A stretch of DNA of 64,000 nt from an uncultured Clostridium sp. (GCA_900551615.1 URWN01000004.1:10494-74493); one strand, 5' to 3'; counted from the stretch's first letter, positions 502-55,974 are shown. The notes: generated from the letters alone by a model not told the origin. Numbers and translations: made by a program.

Positions 502-3500
502 TTACTCACTTATCCCATCAAAAATTTTCTTAATCTCATCATTATAATAAATAGCTCCGCAAGGTCTAATATCTTCACCAATTTTAACTTGAACATTCAT
601 ATTATTCTTATCTCCTGAAAAGTATTTAATGGCACATCTTAATTTTTCTTTTTGTTCTTCTGTAAAATCAGTAATATCAAAAGTTACAACCTTCGGCTTT
701 TCTTCGCCTAAGTCTTTAATTTCATTTGCTATTATAGTTGGTTCTTGTTCCTCTCTAATGCTTAAGCGTCCATCAACTACTACAATGTTTTCTTCTACCA
801 AACTTCTTCCCGCTCCTATAACTGCATTTTCAAATGCAATTATTTCAACAGTTCCATATAAATCTTCTATTGTAATAAATGCCATTATTTTATTATTTTT
901 TGTGTATTTCTTTTTTATCGATGTTATAATTCCCGCAAATTTCACTTTCTGTCCATCTACAAATTTAGGTTTAGTATTTTTTATTTGTGCATTTGACATT
1001 TCTATACTGCCTTCTGCATTATTTTCAGTATTATTTGCTAAATTTTGTTCACTTATTTGTATCAAATCTATACTGCTAATATTTGTTGAATGCATAATTT
1101 GCTCTCTTAATTTTTCAAGTGGATGTCCTGAAATATAAATTCCAAGCATTTCTTTTTCCATTGAAAATAACTCTTTTTCTGGCAATTCTGGATGTTCTTC
1201 AAATTGATATTTTTGTTTTTCCATTTCTTCTTTTTCTTGTTCTGTTCCTATATCAAACATTGATACTTGTCCATTAAATCCTTTTTTCTTTCCACTTTGA
1301 ATTGTGTCCATTATTGTTTCAAATGATGCTAATAGTGTTGCTCTTGTTTGTTCAAATTCGTCAAATACTCCTGCTTTTATTAGACTTTCTACACATTTTT
1401 TGTTTACTTGTGTTTCTGCTATTCTTTCACAAAAATCTGTAAAGCTTTTGTATTCTCCATTTTCTTTTCTTTCTGCTACTATGTTTTCTACTGGTACTGT
1501 TCCTACATTTTTTATTGCTCCAAGTCCAAAACGAATTTTGCCAACCGCTTCTGATTTATTAACCTCTACTGTGAATTTTTCAAAGCTTTTGTTTATGTCT
1601 GGCTTTAGTATTTGGATTCCAAGTCTTTTACACTCATCAATATATTGAGGTGCTTTGTCCAAATTTCCTAAATAACTATTTAAAGTTGCTGCCATAAATT
1701 CTGCTGGATAATATGCTTTTAAATATGCTGTTCTGTATGATACAACTGCATAACATGCTGCATGTGATTTGTTAAATGCATATTTTGCGAACTCTGCCAT
1801 TTCGTCAAATATTTTATTTGCAGAAACTTCGTCTATTCCATTTCTTACACATCCTGGTACAACTACGTTTCCATCTTCGTCAACTTGACCATGTATAAAT
1901 ACTTCTCTTTCTTTTGCCATTACATCAAGTTTTTTCTTACCCATTGCTCTACGTACCAAGTCAGCTCTTCCTAGTGAGTATCCTGCTAAATCTCTAACTA
2001 TTTGCATAACTTGCTCTTGGTAAACCATACATCCATATGTTACATTTAATATTGGTTCAAGACTTGGATGTGTATATTCATTGTGTCCTGGATTTTGTTT
2101 TCCTCTGATGTATCTTGGTATTTGATCCATAGGCCCTGGTCTATATAAAGAAACTCCTGCTATCAAATCTTCCAAACAGTCTGGTTTTAGTTCTTTCATA
2201 AAGTTTGTCATGCCTTGTGATTCAAATTGGAATATTCCTGATGTGTTTCCTTCTTGCCATAATTTATATACTTTTGGATCTGACATATCATGGTCAAATT
2301 CCACATCTATTCCATGATTTTCTTTTACCATATCTATTGTGTTTTGGATTACTGTTAAGTTTCGTAATCCTAAAAAGTCCATTTTTAAAAGTCCTAATTC
2401 TTCAAGTGTTGTCATTATGTATTGGGTGTTTATTTGGCCATCTCTTACATAAAGTGGTACATATGTATCTACTGGGTCTTTTGTTATAACAACTCCACAT
2501 GCGTGTGTTGATGCCTGTCTTGGCATTCCTTCTAGCCCCATTGCTATGTCCAATATTTTCTTTGTTTGTTCGTCTGTTTCATATCTGTCTCTTAATTCTT
2601 TATTTTGTTCTAATGCTTTTTTTATTGTTATATGAATTTCATTTGGTATCATTTTAGCTAAAGTGTCTGCTTCTGAATATGGATAGTCTAAAACTCTTGC
2701 TACATCTCTTATTACCATTTTGGCTGCCATTGTTCCAAATGTTATTATTTGTGATACGTGGTCATGTCCGTATTTTCTTGCGACATAGTCTATAACCTCT
2801 TGTCTTCTTTCATCTGAAAAGTCAACATCAAAATCGGGCATACTTATTCTTTCTGGATTCAAGAATCTTTCAAATAGCAATCCATATTTTATTGGGTCAA
2901 TATCTGTTATTTCAATTGCATATGCCAAAATAGAACCTGCACCAGAACCTCTTCCTGGGCCTACTGGTATTCCATTTGTTTTTGCATAGTGTATAAAGTC
3001 CCATACTATTAGGTAATAATCAACATATCCCATTTTTTTGATTATTCCTAATTCATATTCTGCTCTTTTTTGTATTTCTTCTGATAGATTTTTTCCGTAT
3101 CTTTTTTCTAGTCCTTTGTCACATAATTCTTTTAAAAAGTCATAATGTGTTGGATATTCTGGTGGTACATCATAATTTGGCAATATTGTGTGTCCAAATT
3201 CAAATTCTACATTACATTCTTCTGCAATTTTTACTGTGTTTTCAATTGCATCTGGAAATGCTTTGAAATATTCTGACATCTCTTCTGGTGATTTTACATA
3301 TAACTCATCTGTGTCAAATTTCATTCTGTCTTCATCACTCATTCTTTTTCCAGTTTGAATACATAACAATACTTCGTGGTTATATGCATCTTCTCTTTTT
3401 AAATAATGTGCATCGTTTGTTGCAACTAGTGGAATATCAAGTTTTCTTGCTAATTGAACCAACTTTTGATTTGCTAAAACTTGTTCTCTTATTCCATTGT

Positions 3501-4026
3501 TTTGAATTTCTATGTAATAATCATCTCCAAAAACTTTTTTATGCCATAAAGCAATTTCTTCTGCTTTTTCATTTTGTCCACTTAATAAAGCTTGGTTTAC
3601 CTCTCCTGCTAGACATGCACTCAAACATATTAAACCTTCATGATATTGCTCTAATATTTCTCTGTCTATACGTGGCTTATAATAATATCCATCTACAAAG
3701 CTTAAAGATACCAATTTACTTAAGTTTTTGTATCCTTCATTATTTTTGGCAAGTAAAATCAAGTGATAGTAATGGTTGTCTATTCCAGGCTCTTTTTGCA
3801 ATCTTGAACGTGGTGCAACATATACCTCACATCCTATTATTGGCTTTACACCTTCTTTTTTACATGCTTTATAAAAATCAATAGCTCCAAACATTACTCC
3901 ATGGTCTGTTATCGCTATTGAATCCATTCCTAATTCTTTTGCTCTTACTGGCAAATCTTTTATTCTGTTTGCTCCGTCTAATAGACTGAATTCACTATGT
4001 ATATGTAAGTGTACAAATTTTGACAT
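502..4026 (-). CDS. dnaE: DNA polymerase III alpha subunit (DnaE type)
   Basis: 1174 aa. N-terminal PHP domain HLHIHSEFSLLDGA, pol III alpha core and C-terminal OB region. RBS GGAGAGAAAT lies upstream of the ATG. Confidence 0.95.
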   Translation of the reverse strand: MSKFVHLHIHSEFSLLDGANRIKDLPVRAKELGMDSIAITDHGVMFGAIDFYKACKKEGVKPIIGCEVYVAPRSRLQKEPGIDNHYYHLILLAKNNEGYKNLSKLVSLSFVDGYYYKPRIDREILEQYHEGLICLSACLAGEVNQALLSGQNEKAEEIALWHKKVFGDDYYIEIQNNGIREQVLANQKLVQLARKLDIPLVATNDAHYLKREDAYNHEVLLCIQTGKRMSDEDRMKFDTDELYVKSPEEMSEYFKAFPDAIENTVKIAEECNVEFEFGHTILPNYDVPPEYPTHYDFLKELCDKGLEKRYGKNLSEEIQKRAEYELGIIKKMGYVDYYLIVWDFIHYAKTNGIPVGPGRGSGAGSILAYAIEITDIDPIKYGLLFERFLNPERISMPDFDVDFSDERRQEVIDYVARKYGHDHVSQIITFGTMAAKMVIRDVARVLDYPYSEADTLAKMIPNEIHITIKKALEQNKELRDRYETDEQTKKILDIAMGLEGMPRQASTHACGVVITKDPVDTYVPLYVRDGQINTQYIMTTLEELGLLKMDFLGLRNLTVIQNTIDMVKENHGIDVEFDHDMSDPKVYKLWQEGNTSGIFQFESQGMTNFMKELKPDCLEDLIAGVSLYRPGPMDQIPRYIRGKQNPGHNEYTHPSLEPILNVTYGCMVYQEQVMQIVRDLAGYSLGRADLVRRAMGKKKLDVMAKEREVFIHGQVDEDGNVVVPGCVRNGIDEVSANKIFDEMAEFAKYAFNKSHAACYAVVSYRTAYLKAYYPAEFMAATLNSYLGNLDKAPQYIDECKRLGIQILKPDINKSFEKFTVEVNKSEAVGKIRFGLGAIKNVGTVPVENIVAERKENGEYKSFTDFCERIAETQVNKKCVESLIKAGVFDEFEQTRATLLASFETIMDTIQSGKKKGFNGQVSMFDIGTEQEKEEMEKQKYQFEEHPELPEKELFSMEKEMLGIYISGHPLEKLREQIMHSTNISSIDLIQISEQNLANNTENNAEGSIEMSNAQIKNTKPKFVDGQKVKFAGIITSIKKKYTKNNKIMAFITIEDLYGTVEIIAFENAVIGAGRSLVEENIVVVDGRLSIREEQEPTIIANEIKDLGEEKPKVVTFDITDFTEEQKEKLRCAIKYFSGDKNNMNVQVKIGEDIRPCGAIYYNDEIKKIFDGISE

Positions 4027-4047: not shown

Positions 4048-4086
4048 TGTCCAAAAGTGTCCAAAAGGGACGGTTCTTTTTGGACA
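4048..4086. repeat. Palindromic intergenic element: half copy plus a full 29-nt unit, GGGACGG core
   Basis: tgtccaaaag + tgtccaaaagggacggttctttttggaca. The 29-mer differs at one position from the copy at 54222-54250. It sits directly upstream of the dnaE RBS. Confidence 0.85.
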
Positions 4087-4804: not shown

Positions 4805-4946
4805 GTGTGTAATTCCTCCTTTTAATAATTTATTTCGGAGGTTATTAAAAATTACCCTCCGAAATTGTTTCGAAAGGCACTTTTACCTTTAACATTAGAA
4901 TTATATCATATCTAAACCAATTTTTCAAATTTTATTTACAGGTTTT

Positions 4947-5198: not shown

Positions 5199-5906
5199 TT
5201 ATTTACAAAATCTATGTTTTCCAATTGTTACAGTCATAGGTCTTGACCAAATCCATTTATTAGTTGCAGTTGATGGGTTAAAATAATAAATTGCTCCATA
5301 ACTTGGATCCCAGCCATTCATTGCATCTTGTGCTGCTTTTCTTGCTGTTGAATCTGGTGTTAAATTAACTTGTCCATCTTTTACTGCATCAAAAGCTCCT
5401 GATTGATATACTACTCCTGATAGAGTATTTGGAAATGAACTACTTTTTATTCTATTCATTACTACAGCGCCTACTGCTACTTGTCCTGTATATGGCTCTC
5501 CTCTTGATTCACCATAAATTACTCTTGATAATAAATTTAAATTACTATTATAACTAGATGATGAACTGCTTGAACTTGAAGATGTCATTATTCCCATTGC
5601 TTTTAATGTTGCTGGTCCTGCAATTCCATCTGCTGTTAGCCCATTTTTTCTTTGAAAGTATTTGACAGCATTTACTGTTTGCGTTCCGTAAATTCCGTCT
5701 ATATTACCTGAATAATATCCCCATCTTTTTAATTTTGTCTGTATCTGAGTTACTTCGCTTCCTCTTGATCCATATTTTGATAACGTTTCTACGGTTGCAT
5801 TTTGTTGTTTATTTTTATAGATTATTATCCCTGTTGTTATTAATGATATTACAAGTAGTATACTTGCTATTATAGCTATAACTATATGTTTTTTATTTTT
5901 TAACAT
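5199..5906 (-). CDS. sleB: Spore cortex-lytic enzyme SleB family (PG-binding domain plus Hydrolase_2 domain)
   Basis: PG_binding_1 motif GSRGSEVTQIQTKLKRWGYYSGNIDGIYGTQT, a poly-Ser linker, then SRVIYGESRGEPYTGQVAVGAVVMNRI. Start moved to the ATG at 5906, which has RBS AGGTGG. The ORF-track start at 5942 has none. Confidence 0.85.
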   Translation of the reverse strand: MLKNKKHIVIAIIASILLVISLITTGIIIYKNKQQNATVETLSKYGSRGSEVTQIQTKLKRWGYYSGNIDGIYGTQTVNAVKYFQRKNGLTADGIAGPATLKAMGIMTSSSSSSSSSSYNSNLNLLSRVIYGESRGEPYTGQVAVGAVVMNRIKSSSFPNTLSGVVYQSGAFDAVKDGQVNLTPDSTARKAAQDAMNGWDPSYGAIYYFNPSTATNKWIWSRPMTVTIGKHRFCK

Positions 5907-7120: not shown

Positions 7121-7240
7121 TGGGGCCAAATGGGACGTTTCTGATGGGACAAAAATGTCCTTTTGGGGACAGATGTTTTAAATTTTTTAACCTCGGTTCT
7201 TTTTGGACAAAAATGTCCCATCAGAAACGTCCCAACTGGC
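7121..7240. repeat. Composite palindromic element: perfect 21-bp inverted repeat enclosing smaller hairpins of the GGGAC family
   Basis: tgggacgtttctgatgggaca (7131-7151) is the exact reverse complement of tgtcccatcagaaacgtccca (7214-7234). Inside are tgtccttttggggaca (7156-7171) and cggttctttttggaca (7194-7209). Confidence 0.9.
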
Positions 7241-9370
7241 TATCCTTAAAATTTCTGATACACTCCATGCTTGTGCAATTGTGCCTTTTGGTTCATATGG
7301 TTTTGATGAATCATAAATTTCTGCTATACTACCTATGCATCCTCTTTGATTTATTTCTTTTTCAAATGTCTTTATTGTTTTGGTAATAAATTCATCTAAT
7401 TTGTTTTGTAATTTTGCTTTGTATGTTTTTCTTTTTTCTGCTTTTATCATGTTTCTTAAAGAGTCAAAGTATAGTCCTAGTAGCCATGTCCATGTTATTC
7501 CTTGGTGATAGCTCATGTCTCTTTTAAATTCGTCTCCTTCATATATTTCAACATAATTTGGTTCACCTTTTGCTAATGATTTTAGTCCGTAGTTGTTTAA
7601 TAATTTCTTTTCTACAACATTTATCATATTATATGCAATCTCTGAATTTGGTTCAATTATAGGGTATGTTAATGAAAGTGCAAATAACTGGTTTGGTCTT
7701 ATTCTGCTGTCTCCAAGTACATCATATAGGCATTTCCTTTTTGAATTATAGAATTTTTCGTTAAATGATTTTTTGCATTTTTTTGCTATGTCTTTATATA
7801 TTTTTATTTTTGCTTTATATTCGTTTGTTTCTGCCGTTATATTATTTTCATTTACTAGGTTTTTATTTGATTCTTCTTTGCTTATTTCATTTTGATTGAT
7901 TTTTAATTTTTCTGTTAAATCTATCATTATCATTAAACTGTTGTACCATAAGCTATTTATTTCTACCGCTTTTCCATTTCTTGGCGTTGCTGCAATTCCA
8001 TATGTTTTTACGTCCATCCATGTGTTTTGAGTATTTTCAGTTCCTGATGATATAAGGAAGTCACTGTCTAAATAAATATTGTTATTATCTATGTCTATTC
8101 CTTTAATGTAGTTTTCTATTATTTTTTCTAATTTATCATAAATATTTTTTTCTACAAATTCATAGTCACCTGTATAATTAATATATTTTTGTATTTGTTC
8201 AAATAACAATAAAGATGCATCAACACTATTATATAGTGGGCGGTTATCAAATCCTGAGTAGCCATTTGGAACTAGTCCATATTTGATGTCTCTTACCATT
8301 GTAAGTAACACTTCTTTTGCAAGTTCATATCTTTTTGTTTTTAATAATAAGCCTTCAAATGATATTAAACTATCTCTACCCCAATCTAAAAACCATGGAT
8401 AGCCTGCAATTATTGTATGCAATCTAAATGTTGGTCTATATACTATAAATTGATCTGCTGCTTTTATTAATTCTTTTGTAAGTTCCTTTTTACTTTTTTC
8501 AATTGGATTTTCTTTTTTACTTTCTTTAGTTTCATAATTTTTAATTTGTGTATGTTCTAAAAGTTTTGAGTTTTCTATTATTTTGTCTATTCTTTCATTT
8601 TCTTTTTTAATTAATTCATTAAGATTTATTTCTTCTATATTTTCTTCTAATCCACATACAAATGAAATTTCTTTTTCCTCATTGGGTTGTAGTTCAATTT
8701 CATATACTCCTGTAACACTATGATTTTCTTTTGGATAAAATCCACGTTTTTGCTCTTCTATATAAAACATGTCTTTAAAGATGTCATTTTTGTGCTCAAT
8801 GTATTTGCCTTCTGATAAATTCATATATACTGGTGTCTTTGAGTTTCCATCTATAACTAGTTTTACTTTTGTTCCATTTATTTGTTGCTTAACATCAAAA
8901 GCATGGTCTGTGCTCATTGAATGGAAGTCTCTAAAATTAACGATTGGAGCTAATGTTAATATAGCTTTTTTATTTGTGTTTTTTATTTTATATTGTATTC
9001 CTACTATTTCTTTGCCTTGTTCCATGCATATTGTTTTTGATATTTCAGTTTCATTTACTTTGTATGTATATACTGGGAAATTATCTTTTTCAAATTTTTC
9101 TTGATATTTATATCCTTGTGAAATGTAGTTTTCTCCTATATTTGTATATAAATCATATTTAACATCTTCTATTTTAATACTTTCATCTACTTTGGATAAT
9201 ATTAAATATCTTTGTGCTGGTGGTGTTAATGGAGCTATTAATAATCCATGGTATTTTCTTGTATTTGCACCTATAATTGTTGAACTTGCAAATCCTCCCA
9301 TACCATTTGTTATTAACCATTCCTTTTTTAGTCCATCTTCTAATTTTAGATTCTCTTTTGTAAATTCCAT
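7187..9370 (-). CDS. Glycogen debranching enzyme / amylo-alpha-1,6-glucosidase family (archaeal-type GDE)
   Basis: The N-terminus EWLITNGMGGFASSTIIGANTRKYHGLLIAP is typical of the GDE N-terminal domain, and the C-terminal part fits a six-hairpin glucosidase. The last ~16 codons are encoded by the repeat at 7187-7234. Confidence 0.85.
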   Translation of the reverse strand: MEFTKENLKLEDGLKKEWLITNGMGGFASSTIIGANTRKYHGLLIAPLTPPAQRYLILSKVDESIKIEDVKYDLYTNIGENYISQGYKYQEKFEKDNFPVYTYKVNETEISKTICMEQGKEIVGIQYKIKNTNKKAILTLAPIVNFRDFHSMSTDHAFDVKQQINGTKVKLVIDGNSKTPVYMNLSEGKYIEHKNDIFKDMFYIEEQKRGFYPKENHSVTGVYEIELQPNEEKEISFVCGLEENIEEINLNELIKKENERIDKIIENSKLLEHTQIKNYETKESKKENPIEKSKKELTKELIKAADQFIVYRPTFRLHTIIAGYPWFLDWGRDSLISFEGLLLKTKRYELAKEVLLTMVRDIKYGLVPNGYSGFDNRPLYNSVDASLLLFEQIQKYINYTGDYEFVEKNIYDKLEKIIENYIKGIDIDNNNIYLDSDFLISSGTENTQNTWMDVKTYGIAATPRNGKAVEINSLWYNSLMIMIDLTEKLKINQNEISKEESNKNLVNENNITAETNEYKAKIKIYKDIAKKCKKSFNEKFYNSKRKCLYDVLGDSRIRPNQLFALSLTYPIIEPNSEIAYNMINVVEKKLLNNYGLKSLAKGEPNYVEIYEGDEFKRDMSYHQGITWTWLLGLYFDSLRNMIKAEKRKTYKAKLQNKLDEFITKTIKTFEKEINQRGCIGSIAEIYDSSKPYEPKGTIAQAWSVSEILRIASWDVSDGTFLSKKNRG

Positions 9371-11111: not shown

Positions 11112-11140
11112 TGTCCAAAAAGAACCGTCCCTATTGGACA
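11112..11140. repeat. 29-nt palindromic element, exact copy
   Basis: tgtccaaaaagaaccgtccctattggaca is identical to 54448-54476 and is the exact reverse complement of 54222-54250. It contains the murB stop codon (11131-11133). Confidence 0.9.
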
Positions 11141-53280: not shown

Positions 53281-54186
53281 TTATTTAAGTTTAAATTTGC
53301 TAACAATAGAATCATTATCAAGCCAATCATTTTTTACCTTTACCCATGTTTTTAAATTTATTTTTAAGCCAAAGTTTTGTTCCATGTCAATTCTTGCTGC
53401 TCTTCCTATTCTTTTTAACATTTCTCCGTTTTTTCCTATAATTATTCCTTTATGTGATTCTCTTAAGCAATAAATTGTAGCTTCTATATCGTATATATCT
53501 TCACCTTGTTTATTTTGTCTTAAATTCATTTTTTCAACTTCAACATAAATTCCATGTGGTACTTCATCTTGCAATAATTTTAATGCTTTTTCTCTTATTG
53601 TTTCTTCTGCTAATTGTCTTAATGTTTGGTCTGTATATTCTTCTATATCATAATATGCGGGACCTGGTTTTAGGTTCTTTTCAATTTCATCTAAAATAAT
53701 ATTTCTGTACTTTTCTTGATATGCTGAAATTGGTATAACTGCTGTAAAATTATATTCTTTGCTATATATATCTATTAAATTTAATAATTTTTCTCGTTTT
53801 ACCAAATCTATTTTATTTATTATCAATATTGTTTTTCTTTTTGATTCTTTTATTTTATCTAATATTATTCTATCACCTTTTCCAATATCATCACTTGTTG
53901 CTTCAATTAAAAACAATACTATATCTGAATCTGGTATTGTTGCAAATGATGTTTCTACCATTGTTTCATTTAGTTTATGTTTTGGTTTATGTATTCCTGG
54001 AGTATCTGTAAATATTATTTGTGAATTTTCTCTATTTACAATTCCTTTTATTGCAGTTCTTGTTGTCTGCACTTTATTTGCAATTGCTGCCACTTTTTCT
54101 CCTACTAGTAAATTTATTAATGTCGATTTTCCTACGTTTGTTCTTCCAATTATTGTTACAAATCCTGATTTAAACTCTTTTTCCAT
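53281..54186 (-). CDS. era: GTPase Era
   Basis: G1 GRTNVGKST, G3 DTPG, G4 NKID and a C-terminal KH domain (IIIGKNGEMLKRIG). Confidence 0.95.
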   Translation of the reverse strand: MEKEFKSGFVTIIGRTNVGKSTLINLLVGEKVAAIANKVQTTRTAIKGIVNRENSQIIFTDTPGIHKPKHKLNETMVETSFATIPDSDIVLFLIEATSDDIGKGDRIILDKIKESKRKTILIINKIDLVKREKLLNLIDIYSKEYNFTAVIPISAYQEKYRNIILDEIEKNLKPGPAYYDIEEYTDQTLRQLAEETIREKALKLLQDEVPHGIYVEVEKMNLRQNKQGEDIYDIEATIYCLRESHKGIIIGKNGEMLKRIGRAARIDMEQNFGLKINLKTWVKVKNDWLDNDSIVSKFKLK

Positions 54187-54210
54187 TTTTTATTTCCTCT
54201 CTCTCCAATA

Positions 54211-54250
54211 TGTCCAATAGGTGTCCAATAGGGACGGTTCTTTTTGGACA
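54211..54250. repeat. Palindromic element: half copy plus a 29-nt unit (reverse orientation)
   Basis: tgtccaatagg + tgtccaatagggacggttctttttggaca (54222-54250). The 29-mer is the exact reverse complement of 11112-11140 and 54448-54476. It lies directly upstream of the era RBS. Confidence 0.9.
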
Positions 54251-54447
54251 TTTATATTATACACCATTTTCATGCTAAATTTGTAGAATTTTTAAATTTT
54301 TTTATTTTTTTATTTTTTTATTTTATCATAATAACAAATATACTTAGTTTTAAAATATCTATTCAAAAAAAATCTAATATAAAAAAATAAAATAAATTAT
54401 TTTTTATATTAGATTTTTATACTAATTTTCCGTTTCTATTGAGTATT

Positions 54448-54476
54448 TGTCCAAAAAGAACCGTCCCTATTGGACA
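54448..54476. repeat. 29-nt palindromic element, exact copy
   Basis: tgtccaaaaagaaccgtccctattggaca abuts the stop codon of the GT4 gene. Confidence 0.9.
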
Positions 54477-55769
54477 TTATGCATAAGCATGTCTTTTTTT
54501 GAAATCCAATAAATTTGTAATTTCTTTTTCTGTATTTTTGGCTTTTTTTGTTTTCTTTGCTCTTTCTTGTTCAAGCTCTCTTTTTTGTTTTTCTGCCATT
54601 GATTGACAAATGGCTTTTTGATATGCAAAGTGTGTGTCTTGTGAAATTTTGCTCCAATTGTATTCGTTTCTAACTTTGTTTTTAGCTTTTTTTGTTATTT
54701 CTGCACAAAGTTTGTGGTCATATAATAATTCTAATATTGCATCCGCAATTGAATTTGGGTTACCACAATATGTTTTCATTCCATTTTCTTTGTGTTGTAC
54801 TATTTCGTTTAATCCTCCAATGTCTGACACTACAATTGGATTTTCTGAAAGCATTGCTTCTAGTGCTACTATTCCAAATGGTTCATATGTACTTGGAAAT
54901 ACTGATATATCTGCTGCTTTATACATTCTTTGTACGTCTTTTCCTGCCATATATCCTGCAAAATATACTTTTTCTCCTATACCCATTGCATTTACTTGTG
55001 CTTTTAATTCGTCTATCATTCCGCCTTTTCCACAAATCACAAGTTTTGCATCATGATATCCTTCTAATATTTTTGGCATTGCTGAAATTAAATATTGTAT
55101 ACCTTTTTCATATACTAATCTTCCCATGAATAATATTATTTTTTCATTATCCATTGCAAATTTTCTTCTAAAGTTATAATCTCTTTCTATTCCGTTGAAT
55201 AAATTCATATTTACACCATTTGGTATTACGTTTATTTTTTCGTATGGTAATCCAAATAGTCTTTGTAATTCGTTTTTCATGTAATTACTATTTACTATTA
55301 CTTCTGATGATTCATATGTTAACATCCATTCTGTGTCGTTTATGTATCTTTGTGTTTCATCATGTATACCGCTGTTTCTACCTGCTTCTGTTGCATGTAT
55401 TGTTGATACTATTGGTATATTATAAGAATTTTTTAATGTTTTTGCTGCATATGCGACAAGCCAATCGTGTGCGTGTATTACATCAAATTTTCCTTCTTTT
55501 GCTATTATTTCATTTGCTTTTGCTACAAGATTGAAGTTTAATTGCATTATCCAATCTATGAAGTTGTTTGGATTTATCATATAGTTGTTGACTCTATATA
55601 CTTTTACTCCTTTGTCATCTTCAAATTCTGGTGCATCTCCCTCTTTGTATGTAACTACTGTTACATCGTGTCCGTCTTTTAGTAATGTTCTTGATAAATC
55701 ATATACTACTCTTGATATTCCGCCTACTACTCTTGGTGGATACTCCCATGTTAACATTAAAATTTTCAT
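54477..55769 (-). CDS. GT4-family glycosyltransferase (glycogen/alpha-glucan-synthase-like) with a Lys-rich tail
   Basis: MKILMLTWEYPPRVVGGISRVV and EPFGIVALEAM......V.S..GGL.EIV. Start set to the ATG at 55769 (RBS AAAGGGAGAA). Confidence 0.85.
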   Translation of the reverse strand: MKILMLTWEYPPRVVGGISRVVYDLSRTLLKDGHDVTVVTYKEGDAPEFEDDKGVKVYRVNNYMINPNNFIDWIMQLNFNLVAKANEIIAKEGKFDVIHAHDWLVAYAAKTLKNSYNIPIVSTIHATEAGRNSGIHDETQRYINDTEWMLTYESSEVIVNSNYMKNELQRLFGLPYEKINVIPNGVNMNLFNGIERDYNFRRKFAMDNEKIILFMGRLVYEKGIQYLISAMPKILEGYHDAKLVICGKGGMIDELKAQVNAMGIGEKVYFAGYMAGKDVQRMYKAADISVFPSTYEPFGIVALEAMLSENPIVVSDIGGLNEIVQHKENGMKTYCGNPNSIADAILELLYDHKLCAEITKKAKNKVRNEYNWSKISQDTHFAYQKAICQSMAEKQKRELEQERAKKTKKAKNTEKEITNLLDFKKRHAYA

Positions 55770-55974
55770 TAATGATTCTCCCTTTCTCTCGCTTCGCTCG
55801 TTCATCGTCATCCAAAATTTTTCAAATTTTGTCTGCCAAATCTTGGGTTGCCTCGCACTAATTTTCTTTTGTTTTCGACATTTTTATTTATCGAATATAT
55901 TTTATACAAAATATTTGTAAAAGTAAATGCTTTTTTGTTATTTTTTCAAAAAAATTTCTATATTTATTTTTTAC

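Follow-up and report, generated by a model that had tools for sequence, protein, structure and literature searches.

Layout of the GT4–era region

The 64-kb stretch of DNA analyzed here (hereafter referred to as the window) comes from an uncultured Clostridium sp. Upstream of era it contains two inverted repeats of 29 nt each (TGTCCAATAGGGACGGTTCTTTTTGGACA in the left arm). The surrounding genes are all on the minus strand, in the order GT4 glycosyltransferase, era, a yqzL-like ORF and recO, the gene immediately upstream of era being that for GT4 and not rnc. The two 29-mers are 100% complementary to each other and are separated by 197 nt; chance 29-mer matches were absent from all 100 dinucleotide shuffles of the window. 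The GC content is only 11.7% in the spacer, compared with 44.8% in the arms and 27.5% in the window. Within the spacer there is a hairpin with a 13-nt loop and two 19-nt arms that are again 100% complementary. The original prediction for this locus had described the perfect inverted 29-mers (29 of 29 positions complementary), the very AT-rich spacer, its internal hairpin and the era-yqzL-recO order downstream, and as a description of the locus it proved accurate. It did not mention the further copies of the 29-mer in the window or the 11-nt partial copy beside the left arm. Coordinates of the features discussed are given in Table 1.

The right arm starts 1 nt past the GT4 stop codon, and 35 nt separate the end of the left arm from the era ATG downstream. 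On the transcribed strand, the GT4 stop codon is followed by the first 29-mer, an A/U-rich hairpin with a U-run and an A-rich tract. The A-rich tract leads to TATAAT, the opposite 29-mer, an 11-nt partial copy, the Shine-Dalgarno (SD) sequence GGAGAGAGAGG and the era ATG. The era-proximal 29-mer thereby begins 5 nt past the −10 element and precedes the ribosome-binding site of era. A comparison with Rfam gave no match at the gathering threshold across the whole window and none at E ≤ 1 over positions 54100–54560.

Table 1. Features of the window, with positions counted from its first nucleotide. The use of the term REP for the 29-nt unit is explained in the text
Feature	Position	Strand	Remarks
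dnaE-like gene	502–4026	−	
REP unit with one mismatch and partial copy	4048–4086	+	Unit 4058–4086, partial copy 4048–4057; just upstream of the ribosome-binding site of the dnaE-like gene
BIME-like variant REP cluster	7123–7242		Between two minus-strand genes; found by a profile of copies
REP unit, exact	11112–11140	−	Overlaps the murB-like stop codon (TAG, 11131–11133); precedes the next gene
68-aa ORF	51406–51612	−	Downstream of a hibernation-factor gene
era	53281–54186	−	
era SD and start codon	54184–54206	−	SD GGAGAGAGAGG 54196–54206, start codon 54184–54186; SD unpaired in the predicted 5′-UTR fold
Partial duplicate of REP 5′ end, 11 nt (TGTCCAATAGG)	54211–54221	+	Abuts the era-proximal unit directly
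REP unit, subfamily A (era-proximal; left arm)	54222–54250	+	Canonical motif on the plus strand; reverse orientation in era mRNA
Candidate era promoter block (AAAAATTCTACAAATTTAGCAtgAAAATGGTGTATAATATA)	54253–54293	−	Perfect TATAAT −10 at 54261–54256; conserved across lineages
Predicted GT4 intrinsic terminator	54365–54418	−	19-bp A/U-rich hairpin (arms 54368–54386 and 54400–54418), then U-run; fold −16 kcal/mol, z = −6.0
REP unit, subfamily A (GT4 side, distal to era; right arm)	54448–54476	−	nhmmer E = 1.4e-10; canonical orientation on the transcribed minus strand
GT4 glycosyltransferase gene	54477–55811	−	Stop codon 54477–54479

As a side observation in the same part of the window, the 68-aa ORF listed in Table 1 has a prepilin-like hydrophobic N-terminus (KGSITLFVLMSMLFFVIVV); no Pfam match is on record for it in related loci.

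The 29-mer as a member of a dispersed repeat family

The window contains four canonical copies of the 29-mer, none being expected by chance, and one variant cluster. The unit upstream of the dnaE-like gene is arranged like the one upstream of era, with a partial copy adjoining it; partial copies also adjoin several units in other genomes. The unit at the 3′ end of the murB-like gene includes the stop codon of that gene. A unit is present at the orthologous site in L001 (1847–1875), where MurB is 74% identical, which suggests either long persistence or an insertion hot spot. The variant cluster consists of an inverted pair of subfamily B units (GGGACGTTTCTGATGGGACA), a unit of a second type (TGTCCTTTTGGGGACAGATG) and a half unit of subfamily A.

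We used the 20-nt core GGGACGGTTCTTTTTGGACA to scan a set of genomes, one for each species, which yielded 81 loci (L001–L081). These come mostly from a few metagenome-assembled genomes (MAGs) of uncultured gut Clostridia, about 45 stretches being from CANPNZ01 alone. Together with the window they contain 131 units, some of them single, others in inverted pairs or in tandem arrays with a period of 32 nt (linker of 3 nt), and very often at contig ends; only 12 units lie inside heuristic ORFs. Among neighboring units the plus-then-minus order, to which the era pair belongs, is found 19 times, as opposed to two cases of minus-then-plus. There are also REPIN-like doublets in related MAGs, with a spacer of 44 nt in L011 and L063 and of 52–53 nt in L021, L050, L065 and L070. 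L094 has four units in 10.8 kb.

The consensus of the unit, TGTCCA-NNN-GGGACGGTTCT-NNN-TGGACA, is 29 nt long and has the outer arms TGTCCAA and TTGGACA. Positions 10–29 are invariant by construction, as the loci were collected with that 20-mer; positions 1–6 (TGTCCA) are invariant as well, and conservation there is independent of the collection. When we looked for covariation in the stem, positions 1–6 and 24–29 turned out to be invariant, and positions 7–9 and 21–23 displayed no clear compensation. As RNA, the unit is predicted to fold with −10.6 kcal/mol in the canonical and −6.9 kcal/mol in the reverse orientation (z about −3). Read in the canonical orientation, the unit is a small hairpin with UUCUUUUU after it, which was flagged by a terminator scan. 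Neither GTAG nor GTGG was found at either unit end in any of the 46 distinct variants. Since the copies within a genome are near-identical, and the two at era are oppositely oriented, the perfect complementarity of the two arms is accounted for by family membership.

It was also observed that many MAG contigs start or end in a unit or a cluster of units (L002, L026, L034, L037, L043, L048, L054, L057, L072 and others).

A RAYT-like transposase gene flanked by the repeats

In three loci (L033, L047 and L046) inverted 29-mers are found on both sides of a Y1_Tnp gene, and in L051 a unit abuts the gene. The encoded proteins are 257–297 aa long, those of L033 and L047 having 258–296 aa, and match the Pfam Y1_Tnp family with E values of 1e-14 to 1e-16. 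Their best NCBIfam match is REP_Tyr_transpos, at 67–71 bits, which is below the 80-bit equivalog cut-off. Both the HUH motif (NHVHL) and the catalytic Tyr119 (CRYIHQNP) are invariant in 24 homologues. When the AlphaFold model, with a mean pLDDT of 77, was compared with known structures by Foldseek, the best match was 4ER8, the E. coli TnpA-REP with a REP hairpin (E = 1.3e-6, TM 0.69 normalized to the target), which ranked above the IS200, IS608 and ISDra2 transposases. A phmmer search of the RAYT against the PDB returned no match; the sole PDB profile match is also 4ER8 (E = 0.04).

The window's own species has a RAYT-like gene (P0121; L094, 5001–5834), present in five independent assemblies (L094–L098). 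It is flanked by TGTCCAAAAGGGACGGTTCTTTTTGGACA at positions 4814–4842(+) and 5786–5814(−) of L094, both identical to the copy upstream of the dnaE-like gene in the window. For P0121 and for the exact Era of the window alike, the longest contig is one of 1,744,862 bp. The order small ORF (103–112 aa), RAYT, radA, disA is common to L047, L091–L093 and L094–L098, and radA adjoins the RAYT gene in L033. This syntenic position is in line with what an earlier study reported for domesticated RAYTs with vertical inheritance (PMC5581495). The family is large, and most short-read contigs bearing a RAYT gene are about 1 kb long, as would be expected if the flanking repeats break assemblies. Taken together, the flanked transposase, its motifs, its fold and its synteny lead us to consider the 29-mer as a REP in the functional sense, in spite of the absent GTAG tag.

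The C-terminal segment of the RAYT is conserved (Q244, R247 and G250) and is modeled as helices (residues 224–261), with a match to HTH_23 that is below threshold (E = 0.025). This tail bears on a different reading of the pair, according to which the 29-mers are operators for a DNA-binding protein, possibly the HTH tail of the RAYT itself, that forms a DNA loop around the era promoter. One site overlaps the predicted start of transcription, about 200 bp downstream of the other site, partial copies show a recurrent spacing of 10–11 nt, and the conserved helical tail with its weak HTH matches would be in keeping with DNA binding. However, near-identical 29-nt sequences occur at dozens of unrelated genes, in tandem arrays and at 3′-end sites, for which a mobile repeat is a better fit than a regulon, and we give the operator reading only a slim chance. 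Operators of LexA, CcpA or other regulators and a DNA-uptake sequence had also been among the candidates; they were dropped, as the motif is unlike their consensus sequences and the transposase link explains the family.

Two side observations concern the RAYT gene and its neighbor. The RAYT ORF and the downstream REP overlap (L094, 5786–5814; L047, 1942–1970), so that the last residues (..NVQKEPS..) are encoded by the repeat. In two species the neighboring radA gene is interrupted by a +1 frameshift, located at one and the same codon (about 6245–6262 in L094 and also in L095–L098; about 2437–2450 and about 2575–2590 in L047); L091 and L033 have an intact radA. The 0-frame sequence is RADRL-CGG-..-stop, with GIHNEDILFLGE as the continuation in the +1 frame, and this is seen in all five independent assemblies of the window's species. 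At each site an extra C creates a 0-frame CGG, a rare codon (7 of the 579 Arg codons in the ORFs of the window). This could be either a programmed +1 frameshift or a shared pseudogene.

The era region in strains and close relatives

We compared the GT4–era intergenic region of the window with those of loci coding for exactly the same Era (L082–L089), of a divergent strain (L090) and of relatives with a 97% identical Era (L099–L110). The Era protein search gave only matches of 96–100% identity, and era is found in none of the loci L001–L081, the comparison therefore being one of close relatives. The exact Era of the window is listed with 790 blocks in the assembly collection; the Era of L099–L102, 97% identical to it, is the sequence named Clostridium sp. 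CAG:389.

Throughout L082–L089 both the layout and the orientation of the spacer are as in the window. Differences in detail occur in L082–L084, in which the era-proximal unit has one mismatch (TGACC), leaving 28 of the 29 positions of the arms complementary, and a 12-nt insertion is present between the unit and the −10 element. L090 retains the distal unit; its proximal site holds a subfamily B unit (GGGACGTTTCTGAT, like that at 7214–7242 of the window), and its arms are not complementary. The arms have thus not been kept complementary to each other. In L099–L110 the gene layout GT4-era-yqzL-recO is the same, the site after the GT4 stop codon is cleanly empty, and no intact REP unit was found in the era leader. 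A possible decayed remnant of a subfamily B unit in the 5′ UTR of L099 is marginal (5 of 1000 shuffles), and for remnants in the 5′ UTRs of L103–L104 the score is not significant against shuffles. The era-proximal position is filled in all the examined strains of the window's lineage, and by two different subfamilies. This, along with the possible remnant in L099, suggests that the insertion there may be old, or may be under selection, and not neutral and recent.

An annotation issue was noted in the same relatives. The annotated Era of L107–L110 (331 aa in total) carries 30 additional residues at its N-terminus (1001–1090), the 5′ UTR being open in frame. The extension is probably a start-codon miscall.

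The spacer could be followed through the same loci. The stem of the predicted terminator hairpin is retained in L090 with an altered loop. In L099–L110 another, GC-richer terminator hairpin is located at the same place, directly after the GT4 stop codon. Closer to era, a block AAAAATTCTACAAATTTAGCA..AAAATGGTGTATAATATA is near-identical in the window, L082, L090, L099–L102 and L103–L110, with differing flanks. The simplest reading of this block, judging from its sequence, is that of an era promoter whose −10 element is perfect and whose −35 element is weak, with an A-rich tract upstream.

These data bear on the possibility that a single composite mobile element, a MITE or a REPIN of about 255 bp, was inserted as a whole between GT4 and era. 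Terminal inverted 29-mers around a short AT-rich segment do look like such an element, and the doublets with recurrent 44- or 52-nt spacers in related MAGs are true REPIN-like arrangements. Nevertheless, low-complexity A/T runs aside, neither the window nor any of about 110 related loci contains a second copy of the 197-nt spacer, and there is no target-site duplication around the pair (flanks AATAGG and TTATGC). In addition, relatives without an intact REP have a promoter orthologous to the block in the spacer, and in L090 the proximal unit has been exchanged independently of the distal one. A composite insertion is accordingly highly improbable. Because the spacer is unique, its promoter block is orthologous and a target-site duplication is absent, we regard the pair as two separate REP insertions around resident DNA. 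The spacer is resident intergenic DNA with a predicted GT4 terminator and a predicted era promoter.

The original prediction had offered a MITE-like reading, which stands in so far as the 29-mers belong to a dispersed, non-autonomous and probably transposase-mobilized family; it fails for the arm-spacer-arm segment as one inserted element. The comparison of empty and filled sites proposed with it gave an empty GT4-side site in L099–L110, but no target-site duplication. It had also been argued that relatives having the same spacer without the inverted 29-mers would speak against the prediction; this is borne out in part, as in L099–L110 the promoter part is present, but the remaining spacer differs.

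The second idea in the original prediction was that of a long-range duplex: if GT4 and era were co-transcribed, the two units would pair as a 29-bp dsRNA, and its cleavage by RNase III would control era-yqzL-recO. In the predicted fold of a read-through RNA the 29-bp duplex does form completely (MFE −82 kcal/mol, z = −9), and the A/U-rich terminator hairpin between the arms could leak. On the other hand, read-through would be needed in the first place. With a terminator-like hairpin, its U-tract and a conserved candidate promoter lying between them, the arms are predicted to be on different transcripts. Moreover, the complementarity is reduced to 28/29 in L082–L084 and lost in L090, and both arms are absent in close relatives with the same operon. 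The identical 29-mer is found at unrelated genes, which makes a duplex unnecessary once the family is recognized. The gene upstream, GT4 instead of rnc, also speaks against the analogy with the E. coli rnc-era context. We consider control of era by an RNase III stem very unlikely.

The same arrangement, a promoter-bearing segment between inverted repeats and between two genes, could in principle be an inverton, in which a site-specific recombinase flips the 197-bp segment; each 29-mer is an imperfect palindrome, like a recombinase core site. However, one orientation only is seen at 9 of the 9 places shown for the exact Era, from 24 contigs. The inverted junction has no matches in metagenome contigs, a weak test as the native junction itself has only two. 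Furthermore, the repeat family is genome-wide, and the enzyme with which it is associated is a Y1 transposase instead of an invertase. An inverton is thus extremely unlikely.

The reading that we favor, with a probability of roughly 85%, is that each of the two 29-mers is a copy in its own right of a REP family that is dispersed and tied to a Y1/HUH transposase of the RAYT type, and that the spacer between them is resident. Points that speak against it are the absent GTAG tag, the NCBIfam score below the cut-off, the era-proximal site that is filled in all the examined strains of the lineage, and the orientation bias of the units described below.

Proposed spread and roles of the units

By analogy with IS200/IS605 elements and TnpA-REP (PMC6006769), the units would have been placed by RAYT-mediated single-strand DNA transposition, spreading as single-stranded hairpins that are recognized by the RAYT. 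At the RNA level, the distal unit would give the GT4 3′ UTR a hairpin (−10.6 kcal/mol) next to the stop codon and upstream of the terminator. For E. coli, Liang, Rudd and Deutscher reportedly found in 2015 that REPs about 15 nt or less from a stop codon stall terminating ribosomes and lower protein output. The era mRNA would start with, or close to, a hairpin formed by the proximal unit, which would leave the SD free. As the predicted fold leaves the SD unpaired, the expected effect is a modest change in the stability or translation of the era mRNA, comparable to that of 5′-terminal stabilizer hairpins in Firmicutes, rather than a switch.

The orientation of the units relative to genes is uneven. 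Based on heuristic ORF calls in L001–L081 and the window, units near gene starts (≤60 nt) are in the reverse orientation in 40 cases versus 11 in the canonical one, and near gene ends the canonical orientation is seen 43 times versus 30 for the reverse. The 40:11 bias at gene 5′ ends hints at some functional constraint, and selection against the canonical orientation in leaders would be a plausible explanation. A more far-reaching proposal is that the family has been co-opted as orientation-dependent UTR modules, the copies preceding genes being maintained in a single orientation. Read-through from GT4 would then produce the 29-bp duplex, and a cut by RNase III would couple the expression of the essential era-recO operon to that of its upstream neighbor or insulate it. 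We find such a co-option very unlikely.

Implications

The explanation of the locus changes from a locus-specific regulatory idea to a genome-wide repeat. The analysis also adds a REP/RAYT-type system from human-gut Clostridia, in a lineage that is abundant, uncultured and low in GC, to a host group for which such systems are poorly documented; an earlier survey found REPs mainly in Proteobacteria and did not mention Firmicutes (PMC3733652). If the RAYT described here belongs to subclass 2.1, the repeat family would be a clear counter-example to the missing hairpins of that subclass (PMC6006769) and well suited to studies of REP dynamics. Some of these dynamics are visible already, in filled and empty sites in close strains, in the replacement of one subfamily by another at a single 5′-UTR site and in the murB 3′ REP found across species. 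On the practical side, the repeats fragment assemblies made from short reads, and because of them gene calls (Era, RAYT and MurB) come out too long or too short.

Comparison with known systems

In E. coli the leader stem of rnc-era-recO is cleaved by RNase III. The locus studied here resembles that leader in having era and recO downstream and a potential long duplex upstream of era. It differs in that rnc is not upstream, in that a predicted terminator and a predicted promoter part the arms, and in that the duplex is not conserved in strains or relatives.

With MITEs such as RUP, Correia/NEMIS, bcr1 and ERIC, the locus shares non-coding, intergenic sequence bounded by inverted repeats, of a kind often co-transcribed with its neighbors. 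Unlike these elements, the era pair has neither a target-site duplication nor a conserved interior, nor any other copy of the whole unit.

REP elements, together with RAYTs, are said to have been described in E. coli and Pseudomonas by Nunvar in 2010. The likeness to the REP/BIME-RAYT systems (REPtrons) of these bacteria is extensive. It includes a short imperfect palindrome with many extragenic copies, present as singles, inverted pairs, tandems and clusters, and a syntenic, putatively single-copy Y1/HUH gene flanked by inverted repeat copies, whose best fold match is 4ER8. There are four differences from what is known of REPs and RAYTs (PMC3116915, PMC6006769), one of them being the NCBIfam score below the equivalog cut-off. 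The units lack the GTAG tag at the hairpin foot and hence are not canonical GTAG REPs; the host is a low-GC member of Clostridia and not a proteobacterium; and the transposase is 257–297 aa long with a helical C-terminal tail, compared with 165 for the 4ER8 chain. REPINs, doublets that form hairpins (Bertels and Rainey 2011, PMC3116915), likewise consist of two inverted REPs in the plus-then-minus order. In contrast, the spacer of the era pair is 197 nt of unique, resident regulatory DNA, and the pair is made of two singletons rather than of a replicating doublet.

A further type is TIRYT, or ‘TIRtron’ (Di Nocera 2013, PMC3733652), which has been equated with RAYT subclass 2.1 and likely overlaps Group 1 of Bertels (PMC6006769, PMC5581495). 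TIRYTs are long RAYT-like proteins with an HTH-like C-terminal extension, and their flanking inverted repeats carry a GGGGWSAS-type motif (PMC3733652, PMC6006769). Such flanking repeats can be moderately abundant families and form dimers or clusters (PMC3733652), and Group 1 RAYTs occur in Clostridia (PMC5581495). Compared with GGGGWSAS, the main unit here has GGGGACGG (7/8) or AGGGACGG (6/8), and also GGGACGG; units of the second type have GGGACAC or GGGACAG. Three points differ: the motif agrees in part of its positions, the HTH match here is sub-threshold (E = 0.025), and subclass 2.1 has no nearby REP-like hairpins according to Quentin et al. (PMC6006769), whereas the flanking repeat here is a many-copy hairpin. 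The motif and HTH signals are no more than suggestive of a subclass. Overall, the closest kind of system is REP/BIME-RAYT, within which the HTH-bearing RAYTs (TIRYT, subclass 2.1) are probably the best match.
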